DNA from: Kiritimatiellia bacterium
GTDB lineage: Bacteria; Verrucomicrobiota; Kiritimatiellia; RFP12; DVOR01
Length of the DNA stretch: 64,000 nt
Assembly (NCBI GenBank): GCA_017531445.1
Contig: JAFXKZ010000002.1
Location: forward strand, 201,286 to 265,285
Direction: 5' to 3'
Shown: one piece after another, positions 4,405 through 51,000 of the stretch
Numbering within the stretch: the first letter of the stretch is position 1
Layout of the letters: each line of letters starts with the position of its first letter
The notes under the pieces: generated by a model
What the model was told of the DNA's origin: nothing
The model's input: only the letters and a program-made list of their open reading frames with translations
The model's database searches: none
Translations under genes and position numbers: made by a program

Positions 4405-4422
4405 GTTCTCTGTCAATAAACG

Positions 4423-5470: not shown

Positions 5471-5841
5471 ACAACTTCAATTCAAGGTCTGTATACGTGA
5501 GAAAATGCCAGAGCCTGGTGTAAGCGGATTGCCACAGGTAAATGGCACGGGATTGAGATGTAGATGAATGGGCGCGAATCTTTTATTCAGGCGGTCTTCT
5601 GCATCTTCTCTCCGATGGTGTAGGCGGCTTCTTGTTTTTATAGGAAACGGAAAACGGTAAAGACTGTTGAAGTTTGATTGCTTTGCGATTGGCGGTAAAC
5701 CGGGTGGTGATACACCGCCCGACTTTCACATTCTTAACAGCTTTTGCAAGACCTCCAGAGGAATCGGTGAAATATGCGATGTACGATTGCGGAAAAAGGT
5801 GCTGCCCACAATTGAAAATTCGTGTCGTGCCGGGCTGTTTT

Positions 5842-5850
5842 TGCTATAAT
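5842..5850 (+). promoter_or_regulatory. Extended -10 promoter element TGCTATAAT upstream of gpmI
   Basis: TGnTATAAT match 29 nt upstream of ATG 5880. GAAAGGAA RBS between them. Confidence 0.45.
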
Positions 5851-5879
5851 GAGCGCGTTTATTCAGAAAGGAATCTGTT

Positions 5880-7439: not shown

Positions 7440-7526
7440 GTGGCTGCTGACATGAACTTTTCCGGGTGGCGGTATCACTGCTGCCCGGCTCTTTCCTATA
7501 AAGGTGGGAATGAAAGTGATTTAGAG

Positions 7527-14725: not shown

Positions 14726-14945
14726 TGCGCTTTTCCAAAATTGAAATCATGTCGCCTATGCAGTGCATGGAAACCATCTCGTTAGAAGTGAATGCACAGC
14801 CAAAATGTTTTTCAACGGCTAACAGCAAGGAGAGATGTGCAACGGAGTCCCATCCCGGCAAGTCTGAAAAAAGTGTTGAATCTGTCCATTCCGGCATCGG
14901 CTGACGTAATACTTCACTAAAAATATGGCGTAATGGCTCATTCAT
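14718..14945 (-). CDS. Acyl carrier protein-like (ACP-1)
   Basis: ATG 14945 in an ATGA overlap with the upstream stop. LPGWDSVAHLSLLLAVE Ser-site motif. 75 aa. Confidence 0.65.
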   Translation of the reverse strand: MNEPLRHIFSEVLRQPMPEWTDSTLFSDLPGWDSVAHLSLLLAVEKHFGCAFTSNEMVSMHCIGDMISILEKRNG

Positions 14946-17553: not shown

Positions 17554-17568
17554 GAAGGAGCATTCCTT

Positions 17569-22636: not shown

Positions 22637-22653
22637 AAATACCTCAATTCCGG

Positions 22654-22696
22654 ACAGCCTTTACTCCGTAAACGGGGTAGAGGCTGTTTCTTTTTT
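22654..22696 (+). terminator. Rho-independent terminator after the Na/Pi cotransporter gene
   Basis: ACAGCCTTTACTCCG-TAAA-CGGGGTAGAGGCTGT (two G-U pairs) followed by TTCTTTTTT. Confidence 0.7.
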
Positions 22697-22810
22697 AGAA
22701 ACTTTTTCAGCGTTTTTTAGGATGAACGTTGAACGAAGCGCGAAAAGCAAGGCCGGAGAAATGGAAGCTTTTAAGGAAGTGTTGAAATAACAGTGTTTTG
22801 AAAAAAATGT

Positions 22811-22895: not shown

Positions 22896-25800
22896 ATGAA
22901 GCAGTGTTTCTTAATTGGAATCGCAGCCCTTTGTAGTGTTGGGCTGCTGCAAGTGGTATTTGCAGAAAATGCCGCAAGCCGGTATTCCCGTTCGGCGGAA
23001 CGTGGTGCATGGCCTGTACACGAATCTGTCGAGAATGGTGGCGCGGGCGATACGCGTTTTGTTGCCACACCGCCAGCCTTGTCGGATTTGAAGACTCTGG
23101 ATGAATTGCAGGCAAGTGGAAAGATCATTGCTGTTTTATTGACGGGATGGGACTGGTGTGAAGTCGGCAGCCGGTTGCTCGTTGAGTGGCGCAAGGGCTT
23201 TGGTGAACAGTACATTACGACCGTCTATGACTTTGCCGAAACCGATTATGTAATTCAAGAAGGCGAAGATGTGGGGGTTAATGTGTCGGCACGTTCGCGG
23301 GAAAATGCCTATGCAGGGACCTTAAATCCCTTGGGGGGGTCTTCTTCCCGGGCACACGTCTATCCTGCAATTGCATTGTATGACAGTGCCGGAAAGTTAT
23401 TTGCTTTGGAGCGTGGCGTGGAATATATGGATAATGCCGCACTTAAAGCAATGATGGATGCAATGGTCGCAAATTATAATAACTACGCGACCGCCAAAGC
23501 AGCGGCCAATGCTGCCACTGAAGAGATTTTGACAACGGCTGCCACCAATGGCGACTTGGGGATGCGAGTGGAGAATGGCGTTGTTAAAGACGCAGGCGGA
23601 CGCACGATTACATTAAATATCTATAAAGCTGCTTTATTGGCAAATGCGTTGCTTCACCTTGAAAAGAATATTTACAGCTTGCCCTATTTGAATATGACTT
23701 CCGGGCGTCAGGATGATTTTAATCAGATTGCTGCATGGGATCCTCAGGATGTTTCCGGGGCAATGCGCCGTGTGAAATTAAACGATCTCTATTCGACGGC
23801 AGAAATCTACCGAAAGCCGGTTACGGACGCATTAAAAGCTTCTTTGGCAACATTGATTGATGATACACGTCTGATTAAGTATTCCGATAATGAGTATCAG
23901 CAGGCACTTCTCTGTGGTTACAATCTGTATAGATTTTCTACAAAAGCCGAAACTGCAGAGGTGTATGCGCGTAGAGCGATTGAAAAGAATCCGGCTTCTT
24001 TCTGGGCAGAGGGAGCCCGTGGTCATTTGTGGATGACACGTTCACGCGGACCGGTGTTATTAGGCTGGGGATGGCGTCCGTATCACCTGACGGTTCCAGG
24101 GACGGTGACGGCAGAAGATGAAACAGCCTCTTTCTCAGGGACGCAGATTATGGCACAAGATGGCATTGTGCTGGATACGGCGAATAAAACCTTCAAGTGG
24201 ATCATGCGTTATGGCAATGACCGCTTCATCACCTATCAGGGATGGCATTCCTTTGTGATGAAGATGACCAGCGGCAGTGCGATGACCGTTACCTCACTCA
24301 AGATTTGGACAGGGGCCGCAACGAAGGATGATCCTACAACTGCAACGCTTGTTTTTGATGGTACTTCCGCAACGAATGCAGTACCAACCAATGGCGATGA
24401 CATGGCGGCTTTCACTGCGGTGGAATTCCCCAAAACGGTGAATACGTCAACGCCGCTTTCCTTTAATTTTTATCTTCCGACCGATGTCAATCGTCTTTTC
24501 CCCTTACATGAAAAGGATTGGAGCGACCAGCCGAAATATAACGATGTAGCAATTGTCATTGAGGGAACATACACCGGCACCTCTTCGGGAAGTTTCTCGG
24601 TGAACCCTATTTTGAAGAGTACGGCTTTGACAGCACCCGAGGAAACTCAGATTCTCATTGATGATAACACGCTGAGTATTGGCGATGTCCTTGCCGCTCA
24701 GCAAAACGTCTTGCAAAGCAAAGAACCATCGATGAATGCAAAAGGGGAAGTTGTTGCAGACGCGGTGGAAAACCTGTTGAACAGCGATACGCCGGATGAA
24801 GCCTATATCACAGCATTGACGCGGGCTGAATTCTTCTATGAGCATGAATCTTCGGCCGGGTTTTCCGGAATGATTTCCAATGTCGCGGCGAAAGATAAAG
24901 ATGGCGTGGAAATGTTAAACGCCGTCCTGGCCGATCGTTCATGGATGACTGATTTGATGATTTCCGGACCGGCAGGCGTGTTTGGCCCGCGTGCCGGAGG
25001 CAGCCGTGGCGCAGCCAAAGATTTGTTGCACCGCTTATGTGCCATTTGGCGAACCGATAAGTTGTATACCGCAACCAATCCGGATACGCGCCGTGGGACA
25101 ATTACCGCCGGACCGGATACGGAAGGTTATGACGTAGTGATTCGGCGTATGGCGACAGTAGGCGCGCTGAATGCTGCACCGGTGGACAATGGGAACTTAG
25201 GGCAGACGCATTGGCTCTATCGGGATCATATGGATCGGGGGGTGATGCATGGCGACTTCTATACACAGTCTGCTGCGCAAATGCGATACTCATTGAATCC
25301 GCAATCCTGCCATGTGCTGGAATTGGCACATGCCGTAAAGAAAGGGAACACCAAACTTGATATCATCAATGGTACAGCATGGCAAACGGCCTATTTGATG
25401 AACAACTTCTTTGGTGATTCCATCTTCGGAAATGACTATTATACTCCCTGGGCATCAACACTAATGCCCGGTACAGCAATGGGACGTGAGATCGGAGCTG
25501 TGTGTGGTGGAATTTCCTATTACGGCGTTCTGGCTGCGAATGCTTCCGGACGACGTTCGATTGCTGGCGGACAGCCGGGGCACTGTGCTGCAATGCATCG
25601 CACCTTTGATGGCACCATGTGGGAAATTGATTCAAATGTGGGTGCTCCAACAGGAAGTCATTTCCCATTATGGGAAATCTACAGTTATCAAGCACAGGAA
25701 TACTATGATGATATGTGGAGTGATCCCAACACCTTGACGGGTTACCGATTGCTTTGGGCTGCACGCTTGCGCGCGTTGCGTTATGGCGAAACCGAGCCGG

Positions 25801-26918
25801 GTGTTGAGGCCCTTTACGCACGTGCGGTAAAGGTGGCTCCGTTGTGTTATCAAGCAATTTTGGATTATCGTGACTTCTTAACGCGCAATTATCCTCAAGA
25901 TGCCGACCGTTGGTTGCAGTGGGCAGAAGCTGTCACTTACGGATTATGGCGTTATCCGAGTATCGGTTGGCCGCTTTTGAATGCCAATATGCTTGCCCCA
26001 TTGAAAGCGCAATATGGAAATGAGGCGGCACTGGCCACATTTAAGCAGTTGCATGTGCGGATGCATGATTCCGACCGAAAGACGCGTGAAAAGTATAATT
26101 ATACCTCTGCGACGGTGGATGCTCAGGTGAATTTCTTCCCGGAGGATGCGGATTTCATCTCCCTCTTGAGCACAGCAATGGATGCACGTTATGGCACGGA
26201 TCGCTTCACGAATTTGGTGAACTGGGCGAACAGTCGCTATACAACAGGCGATGTCAAGACGACGTATCAAACGATGTTGCAGTCTGTGTACGAGGCGAAT
26301 GGCAATCCTTTAGGTGTAAAAGCTACGTGTCTGGATGCGTTGTTGCGCGCCTCAAGAGATGGTGATTTGCCAGCATTCCGCGAGATGAGTACGCTGTATG
26401 CCAATCTTTTCCAAGATGAAAATTATCCGGAACTTTCCACGGAAGCGGCACCTTTTACGCAGGAAATGCTTTCTGCAGAAGGTATGGTGACCTTGAGCTC
26501 GTATCCGGAATTGAACACTTCCGGCTCTGCCGATGATCTTCATAGCTCGGCAGAATCATTCTGTCACTTGCAGCGATTGATTGATGATTCAGCTTTCGGC
26601 ACGTATGCTGCATGGACGCAAGAACAATATGATGATCCATGGATTATGGTGCAAATGCCGGGTGATGTGGAAGTCTTCGGGATTCTGCTTCAAAATGGTG
26701 AAGGCGAATTGCCTTTGACTGTAGAAATCTCTCCCGATGCACAAACCTGGACGCCTTTGGTAGCAGGTCGTTCGGTCGCAGAGGGGGCGACTTTACAGGT
26801 TTCGTTTGATGGTTCGCAGGTGTCGCGCTATATTCGTGTCCGCTATGCGAATACGACCGGCACACCCGTGCGGTTGAAGTTGAACAAAGTTCAGGTCTTT
26901 GCTCGTAAGCGCTATTAA
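22896..26918 (+). CDS. Secreted 1340-aa multidomain protein (degenerate thioredoxin-like N-domain, putative transglutaminase-like Cys/His/Asp core, helical repeats, C-terminal discoidin/F5-8 type C domain)
   Basis: Signal peptide MKQCFLIGIAALCSVGLLQVVFAENA. KIIAVLLTGWDWCEVGS...YPAIALYDSAGK (Trx_7-like, with CxxG). GAVCGGISYYGVLAANASGRRSIAGGQPGHCAAMHRTFDGTMWEIDSNV. C-terminal DPWIMVQMPGDVEVFGILLQN...SRYIRVRY...VQVF. Confidence 0.75.
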   Translation: MKQCFLIGIAALCSVGLLQVVFAENAASRYSRSAERGAWPVHESVENGGAGDTRFVATPPALSDLKTLDELQASGKIIAVLLTGWDWCEVGSRLLVEWRKGFGEQYITTVYDFAETDYVIQEGEDVGVNVSARSRENAYAGTLNPLGGSSSRAHVYPAIALYDSAGKLFALERGVEYMDNAALKAMMDAMVANYNNYATAKAAANAATEEILTTAATNGDLGMRVENGVVKDAGGRTITLNIYKAALLANALLHLEKNIYSLPYLNMTSGRQDDFNQIAAWDPQDVSGAMRRVKLNDLYSTAEIYRKPVTDALKASLATLIDDTRLIKYSDNEYQQALLCGYNLYRFSTKAETAEVYARRAIEKNPASFWAEGARGHLWMTRSRGPVLLGWGWRPYHLTVPGTVTAEDETASFSGTQIMAQDGIVLDTANKTFKWIMRYGNDRFITYQGWHSFVMKMTSGSAMTVTSLKIWTGAATKDDPTTATLVFDGTSATNAVPTNGDDMAAFTAVEFPKTVNTSTPLSFNFYLPTDVNRLFPLHEKDWSDQPKYNDVAIVIEGTYTGTSSGSFSVNPILKSTALTAPEETQILIDDNTLSIGDVLAAQQNVLQSKEPSMNAKGEVVADAVENLLNSDTPDEAYITALTRAEFFYEHESSAGFSGMISNVAAKDKDGVEMLNAVLADRSWMTDLMISGPAGVFGPRAGGSRGAAKDLLHRLCAIWRTDKLYTATNPDTRRGTITAGPDTEGYDVVIRRMATVGALNAAPVDNGNLGQTHWLYRDHMDRGVMHGDFYTQSAAQMRYSLNPQSCHVLELAHAVKKGNTKLDIINGTAWQTAYLMNNFFGDSIFGNDYYTPWASTLMPGTAMGREIGAVCGGISYYGVLAANASGRRSIAGGQPGHCAAMHRTFDGTMWEIDSNVGAPTGSHFPLWEIYSYQAQEYYDDMWSDPNTLTGYRLLWAARLRALRYGETEPGVEALYARAVKVAPLCYQAILDYRDFLTRNYPQDADRWLQWAEAVTYGLWRYPSIGWPLLNANMLAPLKAQYGNEAALATFKQLHVRMHDSDRKTREKYNYTSATVDAQVNFFPEDADFISLLSTAMDARYGTDRFTNLVNWANSRYTTGDVKTTYQTMLQSVYEANGNPLGVKATCLDALLRASRDGDLPAFREMSTLYANLFQDENYPELSTEAAPFTQEMLSAEGMVTLSSYPELNTSGSADDLHSSAESFCHLQRLIDDSAFGTYAAWTQEQYDDPWIMVQMPGDVEVFGILLQNGEGELPLTVEISPDAQTWTPLVAGRSVAEGATLQVSFDGSQVSRYIRVRYANTTGTPVRLKLNKVQVFARKRY

Positions 26919-26939
26919 GGAATGAAAGGAGGTAGAATT

Positions 26940-29900
26940 ATGAAAGCAAAACAGATTTTGACATTCTTTGCCGCGCTTGCGTTCAGTTGGCCATTGATGG
27001 CTGCGACCTTGCAGAGCTTTGTAAACGAAGAACACGTAGACGGTGATATCATTCTCGTGCCCGATGGTGAATATGAACCTTCGGATCTATCACAAGAAAC
27101 GCGCCGTTTGACGTTCCGTGCGGAAAATGAAGGAGAGGTCATCATTGATGGCGGCACAACAACGCGTTGTGTTGACTTGTCTGACTCTATTACTTTGGAA
27201 GGTTTCCTCTTACGTAATGGTAAGGCGGAGCAGGGTGGTGGTGTGCGTGGAGGCACCATTGTGCGTACAACAGTGCAGAACTGCACTGCGATTTTCGGCG
27301 GTGGCGCGTACAAAACCAATATCCGGGCTTCAATTTTCAAACACAACTCCGCAGAATTCTTTGGCACGGCGGCTTATGGCGGCACGGCGTTCTCTTCTCG
27401 CTTTGAGGAGAATACTTCTGCTTCTTATGGTGGTGGTATGGCAACACTCTTTGGTGTGACCACCGCAAACTGCGCCATCGTTAATAATCGTGCGTTGCAT
27501 GATGTGGCCGGCACAATGGCTTCACCGGTACAGAATATGGTGTACTATGCCAACGTTGCAGAACGCGGCAACTATGAAGGGTCCCCGACAAAAGATATTG
27601 ATGCTGTAGGAGGCGCACCGGAAGGTGAAGCATTTAAGTCGGTCTCCGGCGTGGACATCTTTACAAATGTTGCGATTGGCGATTACACCTTGGATGTGAC
27701 TAAGGCGGCCGAGCACGTTAAAGAAAAGGCAGACCCTTCGCTGGGTGGAAACTACGATGTGCTTTGGTACGATAAAGATCTTGCGGGTCGTCCGCGACTT
27801 TTGGATCAAGCCTTAGACATTGGTCCTTATGAAATTGCTGATACAATTACGGTAACGTGTGAAGTTAAAGGCGTGGGTGAAGTCGCAGTTGTGCCAACGG
27901 AAGTTCAGGAAGGTGATCCCGTCACGTTTACTGCGACATCTGATACCTATCAACGTGAATTTATTGGTTACTATGTGAATGACAGATTAGTCTCCACAGA
28001 AGCAACCATGACCTATGCACCATTGAAGGAAGATAAAATTGTTGCACGATTTGCCGGACTAACGCTTGACCCAACAAATGAGGCGTTGGACAGCCTCGAA
28101 GAAGTCATCGCCGCATTGCATCCATCAATTCTTGAAGAAGTTACCTTGACAAATGGCACCTTCGCAATTCCAGCCTTGGATAAACCTGTAGCATTCGTAG
28201 GTGCCTCAACAAGTGAAACAACGGTTAATCTTTCCGGGGATTGTAAGGGTGCCTATGTTATCAATGCAACAGTTACGGGCGCAGACGTTTCTAATGTAAC
28301 GTTGCATCGCTGTTTGGTGAATAATTTCTCGGGGGCAAATGTCACCTTGACTTCCTCGATAATTGCATCGACTTGCACCAATATCTCTGGTAAAGCAGTG
28401 AATACAACTGCTTGGAATGCGATGCCTGCCGGATTAACACAGGTGGACTGTGTCGTGTTATCAGGGACGACCAATACGGTAACAGATGCAATTTTGCTCA
28501 AGAATGATACAAATATTGATGCCGGGCAGGGTGGAAGCGACATTATCCCCTATGACAATTTTGATATTGCCGGTCGTCCACGTGTGAGTGGAACTAAGGT
28601 TGACTGTGGTGCACATGAATGTAATTACATTACGGTGTCTGTAGCGGCAGAAGGTTACTATGCTGCACTTTCACCTACGGTGGAAACTTATGACAAGTTG
28701 ACAGGCGATATTCTGACGCTCTCTTATGAATCGCCCCGGACATTCCGTGGGTGGAGACTTGCCGATGGTACGGTTCTTACGCGTGAACCCTCTTACACTT
28801 ATGTGTTGCCGGAGGGCGATTGCGTTTTGACCGCTTCATTTGAAGGTTTTGCGCTAACGCCTGAATCAACGATTCCAAATGATACTACGGCAGCAGATAC
28901 GATTGTCCTTGCGCCGGGTATCTATACGCAAGATTTCACAACTGCAGCCACAATTGTCGGTACCGGTCTACAAGATGAAGTGGTATTGACCGGTACAATC
29001 GCTGGCGGTGCTCGCTTGGAGGCAGTCTCTTTTGAAGATGCGACGCTTTCAAATGTGACTCTGAATCGTTGTTATGTATCGGGAGGCTCAGCAACGAATG
29101 TAACTGCGTATAACTCGATTCTTGTGAATCTCACCTCTGCTACTGGCACGTATATCAATAATACGACTGTCAATACAGTATTGCCTGAAACCGCGAAGAA
29201 TACACGCGTTTTGAATGCGATCGTTGAGGATTACACGCCACCTCAAGAAGAAGCAGACAAAGGAGGTTCATTGACAAATGATGAACGCCTTGCTTTGGGT
29301 GATTATGATTATTATGGTAACCCGCGTGTAAATAATGCGACCATTGATAATGGTGCTGTTGAATACGAATGGCCACCCTATATTGTGACGATTGATGTGA
29401 TTGGCCATGGTTTGGTAGAGCCGCGTGGAGCGGTTGAAGTGGTTCGTGGCGCACCCTTAACCTTTACGGTGAAGCAAGACCCGAAACATCCGCGTAATCT
29501 CGTCTCGGTTAGTGGCGCGGAGGATAAAGGTAACGGAATCTATTCAGTGTATCCGAATGCTGACGCTACTGTTACGGTTACCTTTGAAATGTTGCCGGAA
29601 GTTACGACCGATGATGCTCTTCAAGAAGCACTTGTTGAAGCTCAAGATGGCGAAACGATTACGGTGGCTCCTGGCACCTATGGCGCAATTGATGTGAAGG
29701 GGAAGCGTCTGAAGATTGTGGCTTCTGACTTGAATCCTGCGAATACCGTTATTGATGCGTTAGGGCAGGGACGAGCGGCTACCTTAACCGGGGGTGCAGA
29801 AATTATCGGCTTTACAATTCAAAATGGTATTGCCAATAAGGGGGCAGGTGTCTATCAAGGAACCGTGCGCCGCTGTATCATTCAAAAGAATACCCTGACC

Positions 29901-44900: not shown

Positions 44901-47900
44901 GGTGGAAATATCACCAATCTTGGTATTACCGTGGAGGAAGCCGCTTCCTTTGATCTGTCGGCCCTTGTTCAGAACAACAAGGGCATTAAGAAGTGCGGCG
45001 CAGGCGCGATGACACTTTCGGGTGAGAACACCTCAACAGGCAGTTTAATTGTGAATGAGGGTACTGCTGTGATTACGGGTGCTTGGGCTGGTGCCACCTC
45101 TGTGGCTGCGGATGCAACGCTTACTGGCACTGGCACTATCGGTGGCACATTGACCTTTGCCGAAGGTGCCACGTTCAAGGTTAATCCCTCGGCTGCAAAT
45201 CCCTTGAAGGTGACTGGGACAATCTCGGGAACGGCGGCGATTGCGTTGGCCGAAACTCAAGAGGTCATTTCAAAGATAGCACTTATTGCTTCGAATGAAA
45301 CAATTGATCCGGCCAACTTTGGTGCAATCTCGGGTTATACATATGTCGTTGAAACGGTAGATGGCGTCCATACGCTTTATGCAGCAGTTGCCGCTCCGGA
45401 AGCATTGACTGCAACGCTCTCAGGCAATGTCGCATGGGCTGACGTACCGTGGATGAGTGATGAATCAATTGCAATTTATCCTGAAACGATGAATGTTTCT
45501 CAGGTGACAACGATTACCTTGAATCTTACAGCTGATACCACGCTCACCTTCGGGGATGTACAAGCGACCTTCCCGGCTTTGACGACAGTAAAAGTCAATC
45601 CTATGGCAGAGAATCTCACGTTTACTATCGCAGGTGACCGTGTGACCTTGCCAACGGTAACGACAGACTTGTTTGTGCAGCCTACGCCAATGGTCTTCCT
45701 TTCAACGGCGACTTCGCTTACAATTGAGAAATTCCAGCCGAAACTCAGTGGTGAGTATGCTGTAGGCATCGGCGTCTCGTTCGTGAACAGTTGCACTGTC
45801 GTAAACTTCCCGACAACTTATCGTCTCTTTGGCGATGGATCGGTATTGACCAAGCAGGTCTCGGCGAATGCGAGCGGCATTCAATTGGCTGGCGGCATCG
45901 TCAAGATTGCAAATAGCGACATCTTGCAGTCGCGTCCGCTCTTTGTGGAGCAAGGGGCAACGTTTGACCTCAATGGTAATACGCATCTCGGGTCACTCAC
46001 CTTAAATGGTGGTAAGCTGACGAATACAGGAAATGCAATTGGTACGAATGAACAGCAATTGCGTAATCTCGTCCTGACAGCGGATTCTGAAGTTGAAGTC
46101 AATGAAGGTCATGTATTCCACTTGATTGATGGTAGTTACGCATTACAGACGCTCACCTTGAATGATCATACCTTAACCAAGTCGGGAACAGGCAAGATGC
46201 AGTGGTGTAATGTTTCACCGGATGGTGGCACAATTACAGTTACTGGCGGCATCCTCCTGATGCGAGCCGGCGGTCAGGCAGAGAATGGGACAGACCGTGC
46301 TGCTGACACCTGTACGCTTACGGCTGTAACGTTGGAAGAGAATGGCGGCGAGATTCAGATTACGCGTAATTATGCACTTGCCGATACCGTAACACTCAAG
46401 GGTGACATTTCTATCGCTTCGGTGCTTTCGGGTGACGGAGCCTTGAATGTTGCCACCGGGTCGACTACCCTCTCGGGTGCGAACACTTACACGGGTAACA
46501 CAACGATTACTGAAGGTGCAACCCTGAAGGTGACGACGAAGGATGCCCTTGGTTCCACGCGTAATGCTAGCGGACAGATCGCACTCGGTAATACGACCCT
46601 CACAGGAGCAGGCTCTCTGGAGCTCGCCTTCGCTGATGCCGAAGCATCTTTGGAAATGATTGGGAATGGCGGCACCTTTACTGGTGACATCATTGTGACG
46701 GGCGGCACCTTGAAATTCCCGAATGCTTCGGGAGGTTCAGGTCCTGTTCATGGCCGTGTGATTACGGTCACAGGCGCGAATGCAGTTTTGACGACGGGTA
46801 CCAATAGCGATGCGACGGGTTGGAATGTCTCCGGTCGTCAAAAGTTGGTCTTGGCGGATGGTGCTCAATTCAAGGTCTATAAGCGTGACACCTTCAAGAC
46901 GCCGCTTGAAATGACAGGTGCCAGCGTGATCTTAATGAATGGTGCAAACGATGGTGGCCGAGGATTAGATTGGTATCAATCACCATCGTTAACCGTGAAG
47001 GCAGAAACAGGTGCCACGGCTGAATCCCCCACGGAATCGTTTATCACGGTGGCTGCTGATGCAACTGCGAATGACCAAAAGATCAATATTCGTGATGATA
47101 ATGGCAATGCCCGTTGTTCAATTCCCGCAAATGTTGAAGCGAATGCCCGCTTGACGATTGATGCCCATCTCTATGGTGATGATATTGTTAAAACGGGCGA
47201 AGGCGAATTGGTATTGACCAATGCCACAAACGCTTATAATGCAACGACAATCAACGGCGGTACGTTGACCGTAACGGGTGCAACCGGAACGGGTGCTACC
47301 ACCATGGCTGTGGGGACAACCTTGCGTGGCACAGGCACAGTGAAGGGCGCACTTACCTTTACAAATACCTTGGCAGAGGACGGGACAACCGTATCGGCTA
47401 TGCCGACCTTGATTGTTGATGCGGCTTCGGATGCGGATCCCGCCTTGACTGTGAATGGTGCAATCACTGGAAAGGTCTCCGTGCGCTTTACGACCGCGAT
47501 TACCACGCAAGCCTTGGTGCCTGTGTTGCATTCGTCGCAAGCAATTGAACCTGAAAACTTCATGATGGAAACCGCATTACCAGAAGGTTATGCACTCCAG
47601 GTGATTGAAGACGAAGGTCTTTATACGCTTGCCGTGGCAAAGGAAAACTTCCAGATTTATACAGAACTTCATGCTACGGTGACGGAAAACGCAGCTTGGA
47701 CAGCCCTTTCATGGACGGATGGCGAGGGCAACGCTGTTGAATCCGGCGATATTGCCTGGAGCCTTGTCGAAACCGTTGTTCTGACAGCGGAGAATGGCGC
47801 AGTTGTTACTATGGATGTGGCACTCCCTGTTCTGACAGCACTCACAATTGAGGGCGGCTCATTGACCTTGCAGAATCATTTGGAAACAAAACTCTCTGCA

Positions 47901-50855
47901 AGCACTGCGTTGGCTGTGAATAATGGTGCTTCCATCAAATTGGTTGATGTTTATGCGGCTTCTGCAAACATAACACCTACTGGCACAGGTGCAATTACAT
48001 GGGCACCCGTGGAAGCGGTCACGCATACAGGGAAGTTTACCCTTCCGGCAACGATTTCTTTCATCACAGAAGGCGATCTCACCTTAAATAATACCGGCAA
48101 CGTATTTAATGGTTCGTTGACGGTGGCTTCGGGTACGCTCACCTTGGCGACCGCATCGCAAGGTTTGGCAGGTGATTTGACTGTCGCGTCTGGCGCTACG
48201 CTTGTTGGAAGCTCAAATGATGCTCCGACATATAGCAAGTCAACGACAATCACAGTTAATGGCACCTTGCGCTTGGCAGAAGGTATTCGTTGGACGATTG
48301 GTGATGATAACACCTTGAATCCGATGGTATTGGGTGGTGGCGCACGTCTGGAAGGCACAGGGAATACGCCGCTTAATTGCCAGACAACGGCCTTTGACTT
48401 CTTCAATAACAATGCGACCTTGAAGGTGACTGGCAAAAATGCTGTTATTGCAGGCCTGATGGGTGCACATACTGGAGGAGCCGAAAAGACGTTGAATGTC
48501 ACCTTTACCGACGGCGCATCGCTCATATTGGAAGGTGGCGTTGTTGCGAATGCGTATTCCATCAATACCGCGCTTGAGGAAGGCGCCGCCGCAGCAACTT
48601 TGACAATCACAGGCGAAAAAGCTGCCACTGGCACACTTACGATCGGTGCAGGGATCACGTTAACGGGGACAGGTTCATGGGCCGGCACGCTCGCCTTCAC
48701 TGAAGGCGCTACGCTTGCAGTGGTCGATCCCGACGAGGTGCTCTCTGTAACGGGTGCTATTACAGGCGCAGCTGCGGTTATCCTGCCGGAGGGTGTGGTC
48801 GCACCTGAAGGAGAGGAACGTCTGACGGTTCTCTTCACGGAAAGCACTGCTTCAACAGTGTCCTTTACCTATGGTGATGGCTCTACTCACATTGTTGTTC
48901 CAGAAGCAACGGAGGGAGGCGTTAATTACAACTTGGTGCGCAAGCCTACATACTCAGCCTTGTCGGCGACGGTGACAGGAAATGCCAACTGGTCTGAATT
49001 GATTTGGATGGCAGGTGAGACAGAGGTTACAAATCCCGTGTGGGGAGCCGTTACGGCGGTGACTTTGACGGCGGAAGCGGATGCTACGGTGACGCGCGAT
49101 GTAGCGACACTTTCCCTCGCTTCGCTCACGGTGGCGGATTCGGAATACGCCTTGACGCTCTCAGGCACAACATTGCCTGCGGCAGCAACCCTTATGGTGG
49201 ATGGCAATGTTTGCCTGGGTGAAGGTGTCGTAACAGTGATGCCGAATTTGCGTGGTGCGGGTACGCTGACCTTCATGGGTGGTGAGATTATTTCAAGGCT
49301 CGCAGGTAATGCTGACACAAGTTACGCTTATAATGATTTCACTGGTCGTTGGATTCTTGAAAATGGCACAACGATGCGTATCCGTGGCGGGGGAGCCCAG
49401 ATGGGGCAGCTCAACTGGAATTCCACCGTGGAAGATAGCGGTCAGATTGAAGTGCGTCAGGGTGCTCGCCTCGTGCTTGAAGCTCAAAACGTCTTCGGTT
49501 GGGGTGCAGTGAATGACCTCCATCAGCGTAAGGTCTTGGTTGTAGATGGTGGCGAGGTTGAAATCTCCGCTGTTGAAAACTACATCCGCCGTACGATTGA
49601 GTTGAAGAATGGTGCTACCTTGGCATGTCCTGCTACGAATAGTACTGTTTACTTCTCGCGTGGTGCTACAATTGAAGTCACTGAAGGTGAAGCAACCATT
49701 TCTGGTATGTTGAATATCAGCTGTGATAATGCTGGTAATTCCGTTGGTAAGGGGGCAACGATTCGTGTGGATGAAGGCGCCACGCTCAATCTCCCTGGCT
49801 CAATCGCTTATGGTAAGAATGGTAAAACCTTCGCCTTGACCTACACGGGTGGTGGTACGGTGAACGTTACCGGTGAGAACTCCTATCATACCTACACTGA
49901 AACAATTGTGGATGAGGGCATGACCTTCATTATGAGTGGCTCCCATATCGCTCCTGACGAAAATACACTCAAGCCTTATACGATTAAGGCGGGAGCAACG
50001 CTCGCAGGTTCGGGTACGATTAATGGTGCGGTGACCTTTAATGAGGGTGCAGTTGTGGTGGCCGATGGTCAGGCTTTGACCTTGGGCGCTGTGACTTCTG
50101 TAAATACCTTCGTTGAGGTGACGGCATCGTTGGCGACTGCTGATGATGCGGTGACGGCCTTCACTGCTACGAGTGCACTGGATGTCAATCAGTACGCAGT
50201 GGCGCCTGAATATGCGCTTGAAGTGGTGCCTGCTACAGAGGGTGAAACAACGACCTATGCCTTGGTGGTGAAGCGCGCAAGCTTCGTGACCTTGACGGGT
50301 ACGGAAGATTTCGCGGCTGAAACACAGCAGGTCGTTCGCGACATCGTGATTGATGCCTTGAAGGCTGAGTCGGTGACGGAAGGCGCATATGCTGTTGATG
50401 TGGAAGTTTACACGAAGGGTAGCGAGACACCTAAGACGCCGACGGCGGATGAGGTGGATGCGCTCGTGGGTTGCTTCATCAACGTGGAAACCGTGGAAGT
50501 GAATACAGAAACGAATACCGCGAAGGTGAAAATCGCCTATGAATTCGGTCTTGCAGACGTAACGGTTGATGCCAATCTCAATGTCATTTTCAAGGCATTG
50601 GTGGAACGTATTGATGAAGCGCGTAATGATGAACGGGGTTTGGCAGATTATGCCGACGGCGTAACGTTCTCGATTACGGATACGCTTTCCGGCGAAGTCT
50701 GGGATATCGCCGACGAAAATGTGGAAGCACCGCAAGATGAGGTAGGTGCAGTTTATCTGATGTTGCCGGATGCTTATGAAGTGGAAGGACAACAACGGTC
50801 GGTCCTGACCAACTTCATCGGCACGCGTAAATTCAAGGTGCGTGTAAAACGTTAA
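26940..50855 (+). CDS. Giant (7971-aa) secreted beta-helical surface protein with PATR-type repeats, InlB-B-repeat-like modules and an embedded discoidin-like domain
   Basis: AAGGAGG RBS 7 nt upstream of ATG 26940. Sec-type signal MKAKQILTFFAALAFSWPLMAAT. Uninterrupted 23.9-kb frame. Five N-terminal units capped by D-x-G-A-x-E. Canonical PATR string SGDGALNVAAGTLTLSGANTYTGGTQIAEGA. Eight supermodules each headed by W-x2-L-x-W. Thr/Gly/Ala/Val/Asn-rich. Confidence 0.9.
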   Translation: MKAKQILTFFAALAFSWPLMAATLQSFVNEEHVDGDIILVPDGEYEPSDLSQETRRLTFRAENEGEVIIDGGTTTRCVDLSDSITLEGFLLRNGKAEQGGGVRGGTIVRTTVQNCTAIFGGGAYKTNIRASIFKHNSAEFFGTAAYGGTAFSSRFEENTSASYGGGMATLFGVTTANCAIVNNRALHDVAGTMASPVQNMVYYANVAERGNYEGSPTKDIDAVGGAPEGEAFKSVSGVDIFTNVAIGDYTLDVTKAAEHVKEKADPSLGGNYDVLWYDKDLAGRPRLLDQALDIGPYEIADTITVTCEVKGVGEVAVVPTEVQEGDPVTFTATSDTYQREFIGYYVNDRLVSTEATMTYAPLKEDKIVARFAGLTLDPTNEALDSLEEVIAALHPSILEEVTLTNGTFAIPALDKPVAFVGASTSETTVNLSGDCKGAYVINATVTGADVSNVTLHRCLVNNFSGANVTLTSSIIASTCTNISGKAVNTTAWNAMPAGLTQVDCVVLSGTTNTVTDAILLKNDTNIDAGQGGSDIIPYDNFDIAGRPRVSGTKVDCGAHECNYITVSVAAEGYYAALSPTVETYDKLTGDILTLSYESPRTFRGWRLADGTVLTREPSYTYVLPEGDCVLTASFEGFALTPESTIPNDTTAADTIVLAPGIYTQDFTTAATIVGTGLQDEVVLTGTIAGGARLEAVSFEDATLSNVTLNRCYVSGGSATNVTAYNSILVNLTSATGTYINNTTVNTVLPETAKNTRVLNAIVEDYTPPQEEADKGGSLTNDERLALGDYDYYGNPRVNNATIDNGAVEYEWPPYIVTIDVIGHGLVEPRGAVEVVRGAPLTFTVKQDPKHPRNLVSVSGAEDKGNGIYSVYPNADATVTVTFEMLPEVTTDDALQEALVEAQDGETITVAPGTYGAIDVKGKRLKIVASDLNPANTVIDALGQGRAATLTGGAEIIGFTIQNGIANKGAGVYQGTVRRCIIQKNTLTYNGFGAGVCEVFAESCLIVDNGSENVVRSNGGGASTSDLLNCTVVRNIADKGAGLYDCTAKNCVIALNTDLAGAVSDWAGDSVAPDPTDCCTPTTGGITVDAGTLFVDPENNDWRLREGIACIDAGTNDDRLSEKDVTGAVRVYDDAVDMGAIEWNSPDYNITIAFQGRGIATVDGTEIAWDAEASAKVLSVPRTQQKLSLQWKEDAATSVVRTFVGIMANNAMLEGSTDAVNNAFTWTIAAEDTVNVMLTFIAEDLSVTTAEELTAALESAIAGETIKLAEGNYDVEVDIGTGVIVDGASKATLLQGATLADGAVLKRVTVTGAGVTGPETGRAELIQSIVKGVTGVAVKQNMVLKTCLVYENTIGVMDSTAYLSTIVSNTAAGVSGTSRIYGTVVWGNGVDVEESVERIDSYVGGNPKFTLPAPDGEDYTVLTQSPLIDLAETAQWEGFTDADRSLADLAGNARPALNGYDIGAYELQVAADPFALWTWYGSAYTVDGTWSGSNWRKLIYGAPYNLPANESARFIDRDGFASAEVAIDSVVTIPSLQLENAKCALAFRDAGGRLTVNSGVIKSSSGDLTLAAQMDIKEQLYLSAGALTVEEGASVAVDGKFVASSTPVTMTGGLLSAATKSDLFGTTQFTLTDGTFEFGDYLNIRDSVFVDLAGGTVTGGEISVAQDTRDALRFSGADVTVSKIETGDESSGRYGNIVQTGGTLTVTGSGSGKSAPLHISHWSGWSNYTMTGGQLFVPNGEVRIGQDGNGHLILSGGYAEVKSIGITNGKVTLAGGTLKVQTTQTLPITFTAGTASRVIAPDAESAYLQITPSEAGDIIFGESLGYFQIGTSSEWVTVTNNNLIFENGVRLSAKIALTGTGKGITVPGSGTAPVITSGSFSVDQLAFSGDLSEEETMLLTIRVSSGHTAITAEQFTVTGRWAGNCSLRVAGPEEANGYAIYNVYATRTGTPAVVGTPTLTLAGGTTEWTSNNWSPAFVAGGDAIVRVMEDSTLDMDAYKTVNNLTIEIAEGKTLTIAKGSSLSAAGTVTLVGGGTLRLENAFIYGSIATCDLAQIISNVSSQEWQGTALNGVPIRVEQSATLSNLNEIDLSIAEGVTVGLPTTCRGLLVSDGACTLSTDSATTFTGEAVFGGAVTLVWNTTFNGSLVLGALPATSEKVFYGDVEVTLPEGVDLTIPSGQITSGAYFKKTGEGKLTLSDASYNANLRLGGVVEFTQDTTINGALHIEEGAVVFLPYDATLIATGEVRIEPSVRFILTTSPEANVTLADAYTLLSSNTAAGLVIDQLATLSVMWQNIPADETLSNPQVALAGDMLVYTLTRESAKVWTGATSSDWSTASNWSDNVVPEADDTVRFTDAATTKTVELSSSVPVGVMTFASGDYTLNGGMNLNSFTGKTDVNHLAGTTAWVDTFIERGVYTIYAGAKATLAQEMGYVYKGSFAGEGALELIGGSFTLAAASVGYSGAFTVGTDTSLTLVNAESLYAATVNVAGTLAVESDASVATVVMEDGGQLRLSKDYTFTVREEITGDVAISIATLPDEVGDWEIMALPMNTAASFTLLNETSAEDKFIAFLSQSEDRLILSLRPTTDIAWASKNVTTGADVWNVYGTPVATTVTAGKRVWLTDVEGVTAATISLPENPSSVMVEAVETVYTINNATAVTMPMTVMAGSQVVLRTNATLSELSNGGVITVQNATLDLTETQLVGRGKVIAGTGGIVRISAQTLAESTMTFSCEGGKLEVVTTEDFSMPTNRIPDNCSGLIKEGEGTLYLPPAAMSSTITVNDGVLMPTGAIALKARYFKFEPHERFAGSAWWLPATGLSDFVTTLSGERQAWPDGAKIVRFDSGVTNKIQIGITGDSQSSIDGISGKIANVFDNDLNTQLLWNDWHDSYGTGDKWRRNYFVIDAGEQGFKFTGYNVGTPDNLDAFFWKWSVAVANDISNWRPNTELSTKTADEDTIWQTIDERTFPEDKTLFKTSAWMNAGEYAARRQSGFWSEYTGSVNLASASAVLDLSKAVGTSGILQDEVEMATVSGVGTLKVPTSLKVTADTLSMNTLHLTGTDVLKTPISVKSTAVISTITMDEAVSAAYNESPSADFVLIEGYTGTIAPTLSGMQDPGDGGTWQLAVIDGNLHLGLANSPRFLATTLLSESENWSSLAWTDILGNPIEPDWAAVEEITIKMTSTSPDKVTLTLPSGIAVSGIERIVFDFGDTESKRVCLTGSGTLQTKVLEIKGEHRGTLLPDSTTLLTAESLEVNAPEWDTSPKLLDMFGGSSASWRAPNVPMGIIAKTTTEAIASKVLGTALITVREGTLKLRKEEQFDSMTRELHVAAGATLDVNGCPISNNLTLQGGTLTNSGAGIGTHKRQNYNITLTADSVISGVSDYYSLNNGYNVHTLTLNGHTLTKRGTCAFGFYNANIEGGDGTIVVEAGTLRVQPHNSNVRTLKDVTFVEQGGTVEISAPVTLSGTVTLDGGICSAAVTVAADSKVRGTGTIAGALTLNSGAKIEVYSLAEPLKLSGDYPATITMSTMEGLEYPATVVPILSIANATEATRPYVTLENLPGSRKLEWNEDYTVLNVVPQDALSTETTVKATLSGDANWSTLNWTDSNGVGINPDWRIVTNVTLTATADAIITRDVATEAITSLTIAESSFKIDLQGTALSALTTLAANGDVSFGLGMLTTMPTALSGDAEITFYTDVATTLGGGDTTYAYNDFTGRWIIEDGATLTIGGEGGGKMGQLNWNSAIADSGQIEVRQGGTLTLGTNHAFGWADGANQRNRTVLVVDGGRVVCDANYDQYVRRTFELKNGAELYSSATTPGKGISLGRDTNILVTEGEASLTGTMFIGCDSQHSNQQNILNIIAQPGATLKIPASINNGANQSNADVDVEDMKFSGGGTIVLSGTTLNSYTRMQVAADTTLLVNGTVSFVKPITFEANAIVGGTGSIAPVSTYSSTASVTFSEGTKIKIVDETDPLSIQVGAYTTFTPPSGGIGVIFPEDMVSGNSVKVLTSTSLLATSDLSVPDGYTTTVETSGSWYTLVCSKTSLDQFPTILTDVSGEMDWDALTWQNESGASLDSSLMDWSVVTTAVLRVTDNTILTLPENIASGNQIATLKVEFVKEGSTLTFAGATASVPVIQVIGVKSGRLATTATALTATALSVESGVVGLDVATLNAITSLSDSVTYTLYGDGTLNKALPGTTPVTIASGTVKPSAANQISGRMVTINSGATLDVNGFAQACTVTLAGGTLTNTGAALSDQSAWQTYGITLTADSTIGGTADMRSLNTNWAAHTIALGSRTLTLDNTSTLYWTNASIENGAIQVARGTLDIGYGWDKDNGWAKKEAEATLRNVTLTVAEGAKLTLNRGMTIEGTVVFSEGATFNKDVAIILAQPDGQTASLTVPTSAITGETRIEVDSLTLTGTAAPAVLPTFTGITVNVGETLKTAIAGTTTARILLATLEGNEPVVNNVPDGWHVEIVDNTLSLANNAFPTHLVTTCTGSVTWDDLPWTNASSQTEVVYADVDKELVTAITLKVQGDATLFVTDIKTLLPNVETLNVVYETADALLTFAGDAIVLPALALSGENGSIHSTATTIAIDGMTSSQAAVGLGVGIWNVVSWTSPMPTLYRLYGNGETLNKELPEVATPLTTYGDITLEKVPTGSAAITIASGKLTFEPSESEVTLTTPISGGSLACKGTTTYTIAAANRCVVTTLEIGAETVVKATAQNALQTTTITGEGTLIGVAYLVSGTVSEDWTGVVRFEDVASYTYLNLSNYGNAQSKIELKNLGTANGNVYLVNSTYEVAADLQLEGANYINNGFYANSYTFSGDLTGDGSLTWGTYGTPNDCYFFTGDLSGFTGNLTQLRANRIVLGNNTNVTQDALTIDGTTTWNGTLTANADRYIRVMGSAILSGSGTLASNVTFQAEATLDVTAGTNLTVAEGKTVTLPEALTVKLPVDTEMPVTILSTTAFAGSEGLDDCVVTVEGAEGAFRLRKTATALQVDEFEELDTLTINAATGTAWSSIAEQLENSKQALSADAVLTINFGDGDTPGSFVFDNAEALTFASVVVTGSAGGTVTSSEGALTFTSFTRESACTNLTVDAKVFTAAYGSGAQTIDGWTLGITVPAEGNVTLSNAFTVNSNAILKKVGAGTLSLTSTSNTLHGGLDVKSGTLILASADRGIKGDVVVAQGATLATTANDAINYSASSTQTITINGTVQVGAKWTIFANNKIVLGAGAVLDTYNNYAEPLDFFRANCPIMVTGADAIIRAVMFNHNNDTSHSVKITFAEGASLTIEGNVETIPVTTELAEGATSATLALTGTKTSTSRLTVGNGITLAGDGTWSGPATFNGGKIQVVTNLEQPITIKGAVTASQPIEVLFDETAEVPVKVLASTNALTEEMLAVRTGYSRVVETTTESESTIYTLCYDEADDTDVTAIATTINETVEWSALAWTNIESGNTIDLNTVTAENITSVTLNVAETATLSLADVKTAFPNAVVTINYTAQGKTLTLAGESVVLPAITVTGESGMLKTTATSLVMDALSVVPMGFGFDVALLNSATTLTALPTAYTLYGDGSTLTKTLPATATVTLQSGTIKLGANNVLNTANTIILNADATLDLNGKEHDGSLTLNGGKLTNTGNVIGMNLQQLRNLVLTADSEIEVNDGHAFHLIHSGYGVQTLTLNAHTLTKSGTGTMAWCNVSPANGTVKVTNGTLEMRSGNNGTGANNTCTLTAVTLEENGGEIQITRNYALANTVTLKGEISIASVLSGDGALNVAAGTLTLSGANTYTGGTQIAEGAKVIATSIGTGEVTGAGDIELLINATAVSVPNIIKVAYTGAATLTASGDNGAIVENTTNVTWPSGKQYIFNGGTHALTFYPGTLPNDKSTETEDSASIQVKANTTLTLKARDFGGWTGSHFNNIALSVKGENAKVIAASFDSHPGCFVGRVYLADGATIQGGDNNTDAINFFGNADDANIHVTSGSASWTNKLWIGNGGGGNITNLGITVEEAASFDLSALVQNNKGIKKCGAGAMTLSGENTSTGSLIVNEGTAVITGAWAGATSVAADATLTGTGTIGGTLTFAEGATFKVNPSAANPLKVTGTISGTAAIALAETQEVISKIALIASNETIDPANFGAISGYTYVVETVDGVHTLYAAVAAPEALTATLSGNVAWADVPWMSDESIAIYPETMNVSQVTTITLNLTADTTLTFGDVQATFPALTTVKVNPMAENLTFTIAGDRVTLPTVTTDLFVQPTPMVFLSTATSLTIEKFQPKLSGEYAVGIGVSFVNSCTVVNFPTTYRLFGDGSVLTKQVSANASGIQLAGGIVKIANSDILQSRPLFVEQGATFDLNGNTHLGSLTLNGGKLTNTGNAIGTNEQQLRNLVLTADSEVEVNEGHVFHLIDGSYALQTLTLNDHTLTKSGTGKMQWCNVSPDGGTITVTGGILLMRAGGQAENGTDRAADTCTLTAVTLEENGGEIQITRNYALADTVTLKGDISIASVLSGDGALNVATGSTTLSGANTYTGNTTITEGATLKVTTKDALGSTRNASGQIALGNTTLTGAGSLELAFADAEASLEMIGNGGTFTGDIIVTGGTLKFPNASGGSGPVHGRVITVTGANAVLTTGTNSDATGWNVSGRQKLVLADGAQFKVYKRDTFKTPLEMTGASVILMNGANDGGRGLDWYQSPSLTVKAETGATAESPTESFITVAADATANDQKINIRDDNGNARCSIPANVEANARLTIDAHLYGDDIVKTGEGELVLTNATNAYNATTINGGTLTVTGATGTGATTMAVGTTLRGTGTVKGALTFTNTLAEDGTTVSAMPTLIVDAASDADPALTVNGAITGKVSVRFTTAITTQALVPVLHSSQAIEPENFMMETALPEGYALQVIEDEGLYTLAVAKENFQIYTELHATVTENAAWTALSWTDGEGNAVESGDIAWSLVETVVLTAENGAVVTMDVALPVLTALTIEGGSLTLQNHLETKLSASTALAVNNGASIKLVDVYAASANITPTGTGAITWAPVEAVTHTGKFTLPATISFITEGDLTLNNTGNVFNGSLTVASGTLTLATASQGLAGDLTVASGATLVGSSNDAPTYSKSTTITVNGTLRLAEGIRWTIGDDNTLNPMVLGGGARLEGTGNTPLNCQTTAFDFFNNNATLKVTGKNAVIAGLMGAHTGGAEKTLNVTFTDGASLILEGGVVANAYSINTALEEGAAAATLTITGEKAATGTLTIGAGITLTGTGSWAGTLAFTEGATLAVVDPDEVLSVTGAITGAAAVILPEGVVAPEGEERLTVLFTESTASTVSFTYGDGSTHIVVPEATEGGVNYNLVRKPTYSALSATVTGNANWSELIWMAGETEVTNPVWGAVTAVTLTAEADATVTRDVATLSLASLTVADSEYALTLSGTTLPAAATLMVDGNVCLGEGVVTVMPNLRGAGTLTFMGGEIISRLAGNADTSYAYNDFTGRWILENGTTMRIRGGGAQMGQLNWNSTVEDSGQIEVRQGARLVLEAQNVFGWGAVNDLHQRKVLVVDGGEVEISAVENYIRRTIELKNGATLACPATNSTVYFSRGATIEVTEGEATISGMLNISCDNAGNSVGKGATIRVDEGATLNLPGSIAYGKNGKTFALTYTGGGTVNVTGENSYHTYTETIVDEGMTFIMSGSHIAPDENTLKPYTIKAGATLAGSGTINGAVTFNEGAVVVADGQALTLGAVTSVNTFVEVTASLATADDAVTAFTATSALDVNQYAVAPEYALEVVPATEGETTTYALVVKRASFVTLTGTEDFAAETQQVVRDIVIDALKAESVTEGAYAVDVEVYTKGSETPKTPTADEVDALVGCFINVETVEVNTETNTAKVKIAYEFGLADVTVDANLNVIFKALVERIDEARNDERGLADYADGVTFSITDTLSGEVWDIADENVEAPQDEVGAVYLMLPDAYEVEGQQRSVLTNFIGTRKFKVRVKR
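35305..35840 (+). other. Discoidin (F5/8 type C)-like lectin domain embedded in the giant protein
   Basis: ARYFKFE...IANVFDNDLNTQLLWND...RRNYFVIDAGEQGFKFTGYNV...WSVAVANDISNW...WQTIDERTF matches the jelly-roll carbohydrate-binding pattern and interrupts the beta-helix repeats. Confidence 0.5.
37713..38560 (+). repeat. Giant-protein supermodule type A, copy 1 (in-frame coding repeat)
   Basis: ANWSTLNWTD...YAYNDFTGRWIIEDGATL...GQLNWNSAIADSGQIEVRQGG...VLVVDGGRV...ELKNGAEL is paralogous to 48984..49810. Confidence 0.7.
43803..44312 (+). repeat. Giant-protein recent internal duplication, copy 1
   Basis: NGGKLTNTGN...LRNLVLTADSE...TLTLN.HTLTKSGTG...CTLTAVTLEENGGEIQITRNYAL...SGDGALNV. 44097-44168 differs from 46311-46382 at 1 of 72 nt by eye. 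Confidence 0.8.
46005..46530 (+). repeat. Giant-protein recent internal duplication, copy 2
   Basis: Collinear with 43803..44312 at an offset of 2202-2214 nt (a 12-nt indel between the copies). Confidence 0.8.
48984..49810 (+). repeat. Giant-protein supermodule type A, copy 2 (in-frame coding repeat)
   Basis: ANWSELIWMAG...YAYNDFTGRWILENGTTM...GQLNWNSTVEDSGQIEVRQGA...VLVVDGGEV...ELKNGATL. Confidence 0.7.
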
Positions 50856-50876: not shown

Positions 50877-50914
50877 CAGCGGCTTCACGTAACGACGTGA
50901 AGCCGCTGTGTTTT
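50877..50914 (+). terminator. Rho-independent terminator after the giant gene
   Basis: CAGCGGCTTCACGT-AACG-ACGTGAAGCCGCTG (14-bp perfect stem) followed by TGTTTT. Confidence 0.75.
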
Positions 50915-51000
50915 AAGTTTATGGCTTCTGTGTTGATAGCAGGTTGAACGCGTTGCTTCAGACAAATTTGGTGTACATGAGTTGAGTGACGCCGTTATTC

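Follow-up and report, generated by a model that had tools for sequence, protein, structure and literature searches.

A conserved gene pair of Lentisphaeraceae encoding a predicted giant surface protein and a candidate exported accessory enzyme

Among the closest described counterparts of the locus analyzed here is the LapG/LapA pair of Pseudomonas, in which LapG is a transglutaminase-like cysteine protease with a Cys-His-Asp triad (PMC3032545). Lentisphaerae have been reported to be enriched in proteins of more than 5,000 amino acids (aa) (PMC11573180). Giant proteins are unusually abundant in bacteria of the Planctomycetes-Verrucomicrobia-Chlamydiae (PVC) group, gut Lentisphaerota and Kiritimatiellia among them, and they come without the barrel or type I secretion partners by which such proteins are accounted for elsewhere. 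We analyzed a stretch of 64,000 nucleotides from a Kiritimatiellia bacterium (GCA_017531445.1, contig JAFXKZ010000002.1, positions 201,286 to 265,285), here called the window, in which an open reading frame (ORF) of 1,340 aa, gene A, directly precedes an ORF of 7,971 aa, the giant. The original prediction for this DNA had drawn an analogy between the pair and LapG/LapA. We find that gene A and the giant form a conserved, unannotated two-gene unit whose products, as judged from sequence comparison, very probably work together. We give roughly even chances to the more specific proposal, suggested by sequence and structure prediction, that in one clade of Lentisphaeraceae (Candidatus Spyradenecus and its relatives) the two genes form a bicistronic operon, specific to that clade, for a giant surface protein together with an exported accessory enzyme dedicated to it.

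Both genes, and all features of the pair described below, lie on the forward strand. Gene A occupies positions 22896-26918 of the window with its stop codon, TAA, at 26916-26918, and the giant gene extends from the ATG at 26940 to 50855. The spacer between them (26919-26939) measures 21 nucleotides and contains a Shine-Dalgarno sequence, AAAGGAGG, at 26925-26932, eight bases 5' of the ATG; the ORF finder gave an additional in-frame ATG for the giant at 26922, and the ATG at 26940 was taken as the best start. A spacer of this length is too short to house a terminator or a promoter. Terminator-like hairpins mark the boundaries of the unit. The 5' hairpin (22652-22689, in a terminator-like element of 22652-22699) lies directly 3' of a Na/Pi cotransporter gene and has a 17-pair stem with 8 GC followed by CTTTTTT, and the 3' hairpin (50877-50908, in an element of 50877-50918) lies 22 nucleotides past the stop codon of the giant and has a 14-pair stem with 9 GC followed by TGTTTT. 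A terminator scan inside the pair (to 28500, and from 49500 to 50855) gave weak matches only, at a count not exceeding that of shuffled sequence. The gene anatomy given in the original prediction, a 21-nucleotide gap with strong terminator hairpins solely outside the pair, was thus correct by ORF and hairpin scans, and the tight spacer with its Shine-Dalgarno sequence together with strong terminators only on the outside supports a single operon. The G+C content is about 0.48-0.51 along the gene pair and similar in the flanks, hence there is no sign of recent import.

Close relatives of gene A are few, comprising only 15 orthologue clusters with 48-98% identity, and the genomes nearest to it are metagenome-assembled genomes (MAGs) assigned to Candidatus Spyradenecus and Lentisphaeraceae (core identity 92% in locus L013), a lineage of gut Lentisphaerota. 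The original prediction was to be given up if the two genes were not found adjacent elsewhere, and it withstands this check. Wherever a contig extends far enough past the gene A orthologue, a giant ORF begins directly 3' of it (L001-L008, L013 and L015-L020). The downstream ORFs encode 8,114 aa in L001 and L003, 7,220 aa in L004, 6,764 aa in L006 and 7,076 aa in L007, and those of L013 and L015-L020 extend past the end of the examined DNA. Aligned over their first ~3,300 residues, the encoded proteins prove to be orthologues colinear with the giant of the window, at 50-51% identity (61% for a shorter fragment in L008) or at 42%, and a reciprocal search starting from the giant (P0017) recovered gene A upstream. 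The spacer is 21-22 nucleotides in L001, L003, L004, L006 and L007. Upstream neighbors vary among the loci and are of at least four kinds: a Na/Pi transporter gene, a TPR/radical-SAM/CvpA/DnaG group, an HU-like gene, or small ORFs. In MAGs labeled Kiritimatiellia by NCBI (L012:587-8468 and L028:6046-19887), two separate ORFs take the place of gene A, and a signal peptide precedes each of them. The first, of 538 aa, corresponds to aa 1-573 and the second, of 738 aa, to aa 610-1340 of gene A (38% identity each). Immediately 3' of the two, after a spacer of 16 nucleotides, comes an orthologue of the giant with 38% identity, 4,320 aa long in L028. This natural split indicates that the N- and C-terminal halves are separable modules. 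Retention of the adjacency down to 38% identity amid reshuffled surroundings is good evidence of a functional link.

In a further metagenome relative (L032:5944-25823), whose giant fragment is 88% identical to the window giant, both genes are interrupted, gene A into ORFs of 325 and 1,022 aa and the giant into ORFs of 1,940 and at least 5,649 aa. The ORF ends overlap, and either assembly frameshifts or joint decay may be responsible.

A dedicated role is weakened by the distant members of the gene A family. At 22-41% identity, no giant gene is present within 10 kb of the family member (L011, L022-L027, L029-L031). One of these proteins, P0032 (40% identity), is followed by a DAP epimerase gene, the 1,186-aa members of Kiritimatiellota (L022-L027) lie between arginine-biosynthesis genes and guaA, two members (L029, L031) overlap an NTP_transferase-TruA-Glycos_transf_4 block, and one other stands alone. 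The basic activity of the family is therefore not giant-specific, and by this distribution pairing with a giant is an innovation of one clade within it. The same distribution would suit a general enzyme acting on the envelope or on glycans that became fixed upstream of the giant in one lineage, the two genes sharing a transcript without any mutual action of their products, and the PA14 and discoidin domains of the family are typical of carbohydrate-active proteins. Neutral hitch-hiking of this kind would, however, be expected to break under rearrangement, whereas the adjacency at 16-22 nucleotides persists from 98% to 38% identity despite reshuffled upstream flanks and the split of gene A. We therefore regard a shared transcript alone as an improbable explanation, and a joint function of gene A and the giant remains the preferred one.

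Two of the distant contexts have features of their own. In L029:10001-15948 and L031:10001-14799, both from Kiritimatiellia, the members of 683-1,049 aa overlap the NTP_transferase gene by 20 nucleotides, and TruA and a Glycos_transf_4 gene of the polyprenyl-phosphate sugar transferase type follow; the wider family may be linked to envelope glycan synthesis, or this may be inherited synteny. In L024:6988-8445, and also in L022, an unannotated ORF of about 485-490 aa ends just 5' of the 1,186-aa member (14 nucleotides in L024) and may be a partner there.

The gene A product is a multidomain protein with a predicted export signal. By inspection of the translation, aa 1-23 (22896-22964) form a predicted Sec signal peptide, MKQCFLIGIAALCSVGLLQVVFA, with the predicted cleavage between VVFA and EN, and signal-peptide-like N-termini are found in about two-thirds of the family representatives, while a few members open with a zinc ribbon or an FHA domain in place of the signal peptide. 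The N-terminal module that follows (aa 24-600, 22965-24695), with a 'GWDWCE.GS' motif at aa 84-92, is the part encoded by the separate 538-aa ORF in L012 and L028, and it had no Pfam or PDB match. An overlapping segment, aa 79-92 (23130-23171), a short way past the signal peptide, reads as an AVL(Y/L)xG(S/W)DWC motif that is also seen near the N-terminal ends of P0036, P0040, P0044, P0049, P0051 and others; the 'GSDWC' form is common to many members, and the motif had no database match. It recalls the thioredoxin-like fold, and its Cys is not kept in the Spyradenecus subgroup (WDWSE). The Cys-His core spans aa 840-925 (25413-25670), with the codons of Cys870 at 25503-25505, of His896 at 25581-25583 and of Cys897 at 25584-25586. 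It is followed by a predicted TPR-like alpha-solenoid (aa ~931-1174, 25686-26417), which gave profile matches to TPR chains, corresponds to residues 292-535 of the structure model described below, where the predicted local distance difference test (pLDDT) exceeds 90, and found TPR proteins (KLC, SNAP) and menin as best matches in Foldseek.

At the C-terminus, aa ~1236-1340 (26601-26915) constitute an F5/8 type C (discoidin/CBM32-like) domain, the only domain that sequence searches of Pfam, NCBIfam and the PDB found in gene A. The window copy stays below the Pfam threshold (E 6.5e-4); in the orthologues PF22633 is matched in 15/15 and PF00754 in 11/15 (best E 4.7e-11), CBM32 structures in the PDB are matched at E 3.5e-8, and the domain is found in 48/51 members of a diverse family alignment, 11 of the 51 carrying PA14. 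It was also modeled as a beta-sandwich at pLDDT 65-86 even in a poor model built on six sequences, so that the assignment of a discoidin domain to gene A is firm at the level of sequence. The original prediction had placed a discoidin-like domain on both proteins. This is borne out for gene A only; in the window copy of the giant (aa ~2760-3010), no discoidin domain was detected by Pfam, a hidden Markov model (HMM) of the gene A domain, BLASTP or hhalign. The last ten residues of gene A (aa 1331-1340, 26886-26915) form a tail after the last discoidin strand that reads ...K[IF]xV[YF]GKKLY in nearly all members (C-termini of P0031-P0070) and ...FARKRY in the window; it may be the edge of the domain or a C-terminal signal.

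An exhaustive profile search with aa 640-1235 of gene A returned 272 cluster representatives at E <= 1e-3, 185 of them at E <= 1e-10. Most members have 660-1,200 aa and share the region of aa ~745-1205; they stem from Kiritimatiellia, Lentisphaeraceae and one Luteolibacter record, and their source records bear only the names 'hypothetical' or 'discoidin domain-containing'. None of the 51 aligned members matched a Pfam family in the core region. A word-indexed search with the core alignment gave six unannotated fragments and no transitive link to PF01841, and PDB searches by sequence and by profile, whether with gene A, its N-terminal half or the core alignment, yielded nothing relevant. An unannotated family of 272 clusters is thereby defined, with a clear candidate active site. 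In the 51-member alignment, in which identity to the window protein is 21-58%, Cys870, Ser874, Gly885, Gly892, Pro894, His896 and Cys897 are invariant. Among 150 cluster representatives with a mean identity of only ~21-28%, Cys870 is kept in 149, His896 in 147, Trp909 in 147, Ser874 in 146 and Cys897 in 145.

A structure prediction for aa 600-1340 from an alignment of six sequences reached a pLDDT of 38.6, with the discoidin domain alone being confident, and the alignment of 51 diverse sequences was used instead. The resulting AlphaFold model of 596 residues has a pLDDT of 89.3 and a predicted TM-score (pTM) of 0.86. In this model a helix (231-244) starts exactly at Cys231, which is Cys870 of gene A, and strands follow at 249-254, at 257-263, the first residue of which, His257, is His896, and at 270-272, before about 240 residues of paired helices. 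The modeled core thus has a papain/transglutaminase-like arrangement, with the Cys at the helix N-terminus and the His on a following strand, as is characteristic of a nucleophile and its partner in the transglutaminase-like superfamily. The core motif, VGGVCGxLSxYGAxxAxAHGIPAxTxGQPGHCAY, resembles the transglutaminase core of 3isr (...FHACFEAY), and the His-Cys pair also occurs at the catalytic His of human TG2. Taken with the conservation, the model makes it reasonably probable that the gene A core is a Cys-His enzyme of papain/transglutaminase-like type.

Other results speak against a catalytic assignment or link the core to transglutaminase-like enzymes only weakly. No third catalytic Asp is kept across the family: Asp912 occurs in the close clade alone, and where transglutaminases have their Asp (W+4, in the strand after the His) the family has Tyr, Asn or Phe. 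Neither gene A of the window nor its 15 orthologues or the 51 members gave an above-threshold database match to any catalytic family. The only Pfam match of the family consensus is Transglut_core with 13.5 bits (E 0.09) versus a cut-off of 23 bits. The family HMM places its Cys on the catalytic GVCRDF of 3isr with 7 bits and an E of 7e-4 in a search of just three targets, and hhalign against a two-sequence transglutaminase-like template gave E 0.0025 with a probability of 12% and, in a second run, E 0.18 with a probability of 0.3%. As a scale for such values, the accepted superfamily members FXIII, TG2, the peptide:N-glycanase (PNGase) 2f4m and the Legionella LapG 4fgo reached only E 0.005-0.2 against a small transglutaminase-like profile (0.05-0.2 for 4fgo and 2f4m). 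Foldseek with the whole 596-residue model versus PDB and BFVD found no match at E < 0.1, the best matches being generic TPR proteins at E 0.13. Finally, both near-invariant cysteines might instead belong to a disulfide or a metal site, the protein being a predicted exported one. Transglutaminase-like links in sequence and fold are hence weak and inconsistent, and the label of a transglutaminase-like cysteine protease, used in the analogy of the original prediction, is backed by no database match above threshold. What survives of the catalytic fold that the original prediction had expected in the upstream protein is a near-invariant Cys-His core in a papain/transglutaminase-like secondary structure; a conserved third Asp and above-threshold matches are missing.

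These points would be accommodated if gene A were a non-catalytic adaptor, chaperone or anchor, whose solenoid binds the giant in the periplasm or at the surface and whose discoidin domain binds an envelope glycan, the cysteines being structural; it would then keep the giant in place or help to export it with no covalent step. Firm similarity to known folds is confined to the TPR-like solenoid and the discoidin domain, no catalytic family is matched above threshold, the third triad residue is missing, the pairing with the giant is conserved, and a disulfide between Cys870 and Cys897 is chemically plausible because gene A is exported by its predicted signal. The retention of both cysteines, the His, Ser874 and Trp909 in 145-149 of 150 representatives at such low overall identity is, however, more active-site-like than scaffold-like, and the modeled position of the Cys at a helix N-terminus beside a strand-borne His is papain-like. 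Moreover, adjacent residues of a beta-strand face opposite sides, which would weigh against His896 and Cys897 sharing one site. We consider a purely structural role rather unlikely and favor a Cys-His enzyme.

With the transglutaminase-like superfamily (PF01841; 3isr, 6g49, TG2, FXIII), the gene A core shares the motif G-V-C-x-x-[LF]-[SA]...A-x-G-I-P-A...H-[CA] and the topology of a helix followed by strands, but differs in its short Cys-to-His spacing of 26 residues and in the absent third Asp, and the similarity is sub-threshold. PNGase (2f4m, 1x3w), a cytosolic, eukaryotic enzyme, joins a transglutaminase-like Cys-His core to a sugar-binding beta-sandwich. Its architecture may offer an analogy to gene A, to which it has no detectable sequence relationship. 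Menin combines a transglutaminase-like 'thumb' with a TPR 'palm' (PMC13256885) and was the sole non-pure-TPR protein with long Foldseek alignments to the gene A model (364-506 columns), as would fit a transglutaminase-like domain with TPR repeats behind it; these alignments have probabilities of only 0.14-0.63 and a TM-score of ~0.2, and menin is a non-catalytic eukaryotic scaffold.

The giant is a predicted exported protein of beta-helix and PATR-repeat type. Its predicted Sec signal peptide, aa 1-21 (26940-27002), MKAKQILTFFAALAFSWPLMA, ends in PLMA before AT by inspection and is kept in the L001 and L007 orthologues, so that Sec-type signals do appear to be present on both proteins, as had been stated, on inspection of the translations. 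From about aa 22 onwards, the N-terminal ~1,200-1,470 aa are similar to proteins of the right-handed parallel beta-helix kind that have InlB-B or PKD-like inserts. A divergent InlB B-repeat, a repeat type seen weakly in this region of the giant, also occurs in a 362-aa protein at the right edge of the window (62879-63967). PATR (PF12951) is matched in five stretches of the giant with E 3.4e-9. The repeat region (aa ~3300-7600, 36837-49739) consists of large divergent modules, with PATR motifs for example at aa 5768-5788, and comparison of the giant with itself in chunks by BLASTP gave 22 internal matches of 24-79% identity. Between these parts, aa 2760-3010 (35217-35969) form a conserved insert outside the helix, with 62-64% identity to the L007 and L001 orthologues and 46% to those of L006 and L004. 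By eye it is a candidate, unproven, for a discoidin-like beta-sandwich; PF00754 is touched by 3/5 orthologous insert segments (best E 0.0035). For the C-terminal 251 aa, Pfam gave no match and JGI metagenomes no relatives, and no sorting domain was recognized there.

Several export routes were considered for the giant and rejected. It shares PATR and a beta-helix with the passengers of PATR autotransporters and with giant PVC proteins (PF12951), but differs in that no autotransporter beta-barrel was found with Pfam; a classical autotransporter (type Va) was discarded for lack of this C-terminal translocator. Two-partner secretion of the TpsB/TpsA kind was discarded since gene A, predicted to be helical with a beta-sandwich, has no match to POTRA, ShlB or Bac_surface_Ag. 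A type I secretion/RTX route was discarded because the 64-kb window holds no genes for ABC, HlyD (membrane fusion, MFP) or TolC proteins and the giant contains a single isolated GGxGxD in 7,971 aa, which means that there is no RTX array. A lipoprotein was discarded because inspection showed no lipobox.

The comparison with LapG/LapA can now be made. A probable papain/transglutaminase-like Cys-His protein would in both cases be genetically tied to a giant surface protein, both partners being predicted to act outside the cytoplasm. In detail the systems part. PF06035 (DUF920), the BTLCP family, is not matched by gene A, any of the 15 orthologues, any of the 51 members or the family consensus, which refutes membership in the LapG/LapA family. 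Of the Cys-His-Asp triad of BTLCP proteins, gene A has the Cys and the His and no conserved Asp. Substrates of the Lap system are RTX adhesins that leave by type I secretion and carry a retention module at the N-terminus; the giant has a Sec-type signal, then a beta-helix, and no such module. Gene A has 1,340 aa with TPR and discoidin parts, as opposed to the 193-aa crystallized chain of Legionella LapG (4fgo), and differs also in being encoded in the same predicted operon, 21 nucleotides upstream of the giant. No GGDEF/EAL/HAMP protein, and thus no LapD-like partner, was present among the ORFs of at least 150 aa scanned in the window; the absence of type I secretion genes, RTX repeats and a LapD-like partner, already remarked on in the original prediction, is true within the window. 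We conclude that the LapG/LapA comparison is thematic only, and the analogy first proposed is abandoned. A true system of that type, with a periplasmic BTLCP protease that frees a retained adhesin under cyclic di-GMP control, would have in its favor only the general theme of a Cys-His enzyme adjoining a giant surface protein, and with every one of the above differences against it we judge it extremely improbable.

Catalysis, substrate and chemistry of gene A we infer along the following lines. Both proteins would cross the inner membrane by means of their Sec signals, the TPR and N-terminal modules of gene A would hold the giant, and the discoidin domain would position the complex on an envelope glycan. 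The Cys-His center would then covalently modify the giant, either by proteolytic maturation or release or by a transamidation that tethers or cross-links it. If gene A does process or tether the giant, the pair would have evolved independently as a counterpart to LapG/LapA and other systems in which a protease controls an adhesin. In a bolder version, the gene A family would be an unrecognized branch of exported transglutaminase/papain-like enzymes that in one Lentisphaeraceae lineage became the dedicated maturation or anchoring enzyme of a Sec-exported giant of PATR beta-helix type, for example by cleaving it or by attaching it covalently to the envelope. We put this forward as a long shot; if true, it would amount to a mechanism of surface display that needs neither type I nor type V secretion and has no relation to the Lap system. 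A conserved operon partner with an enzyme-like core in any case provides a concrete, testable handle on how such giants reach, stay on and leave the cell surface.

The genes flanking the pair in the window are all housekeeping genes, among them rpsA and those for iPGM, ThiC, RF-1, RecR, DnaX, HtpG, a BioB-like protein and a Mur ligase. Scanning the window for Rfam families and tRNAs gave no matches. This includes a region of 1.47 kb between the RmlD-like and iPGM genes (4405-5879), in which the longest ORF has an unconvincing 106 aa and neither a tRNA nor an Rfam match at E <= 1 was found. At the left edge (15-2820) an FHA-domain protein precedes one with a PEGA domain. Beside rpsA, a cluster on the reverse strand (13736-18468) encodes KAS III-like, FkbH-like/HAD, GT4 glycosyltransferase and GHMP kinase proteins, which may belong to a glycolipid or unusual-extender-unit pathway.

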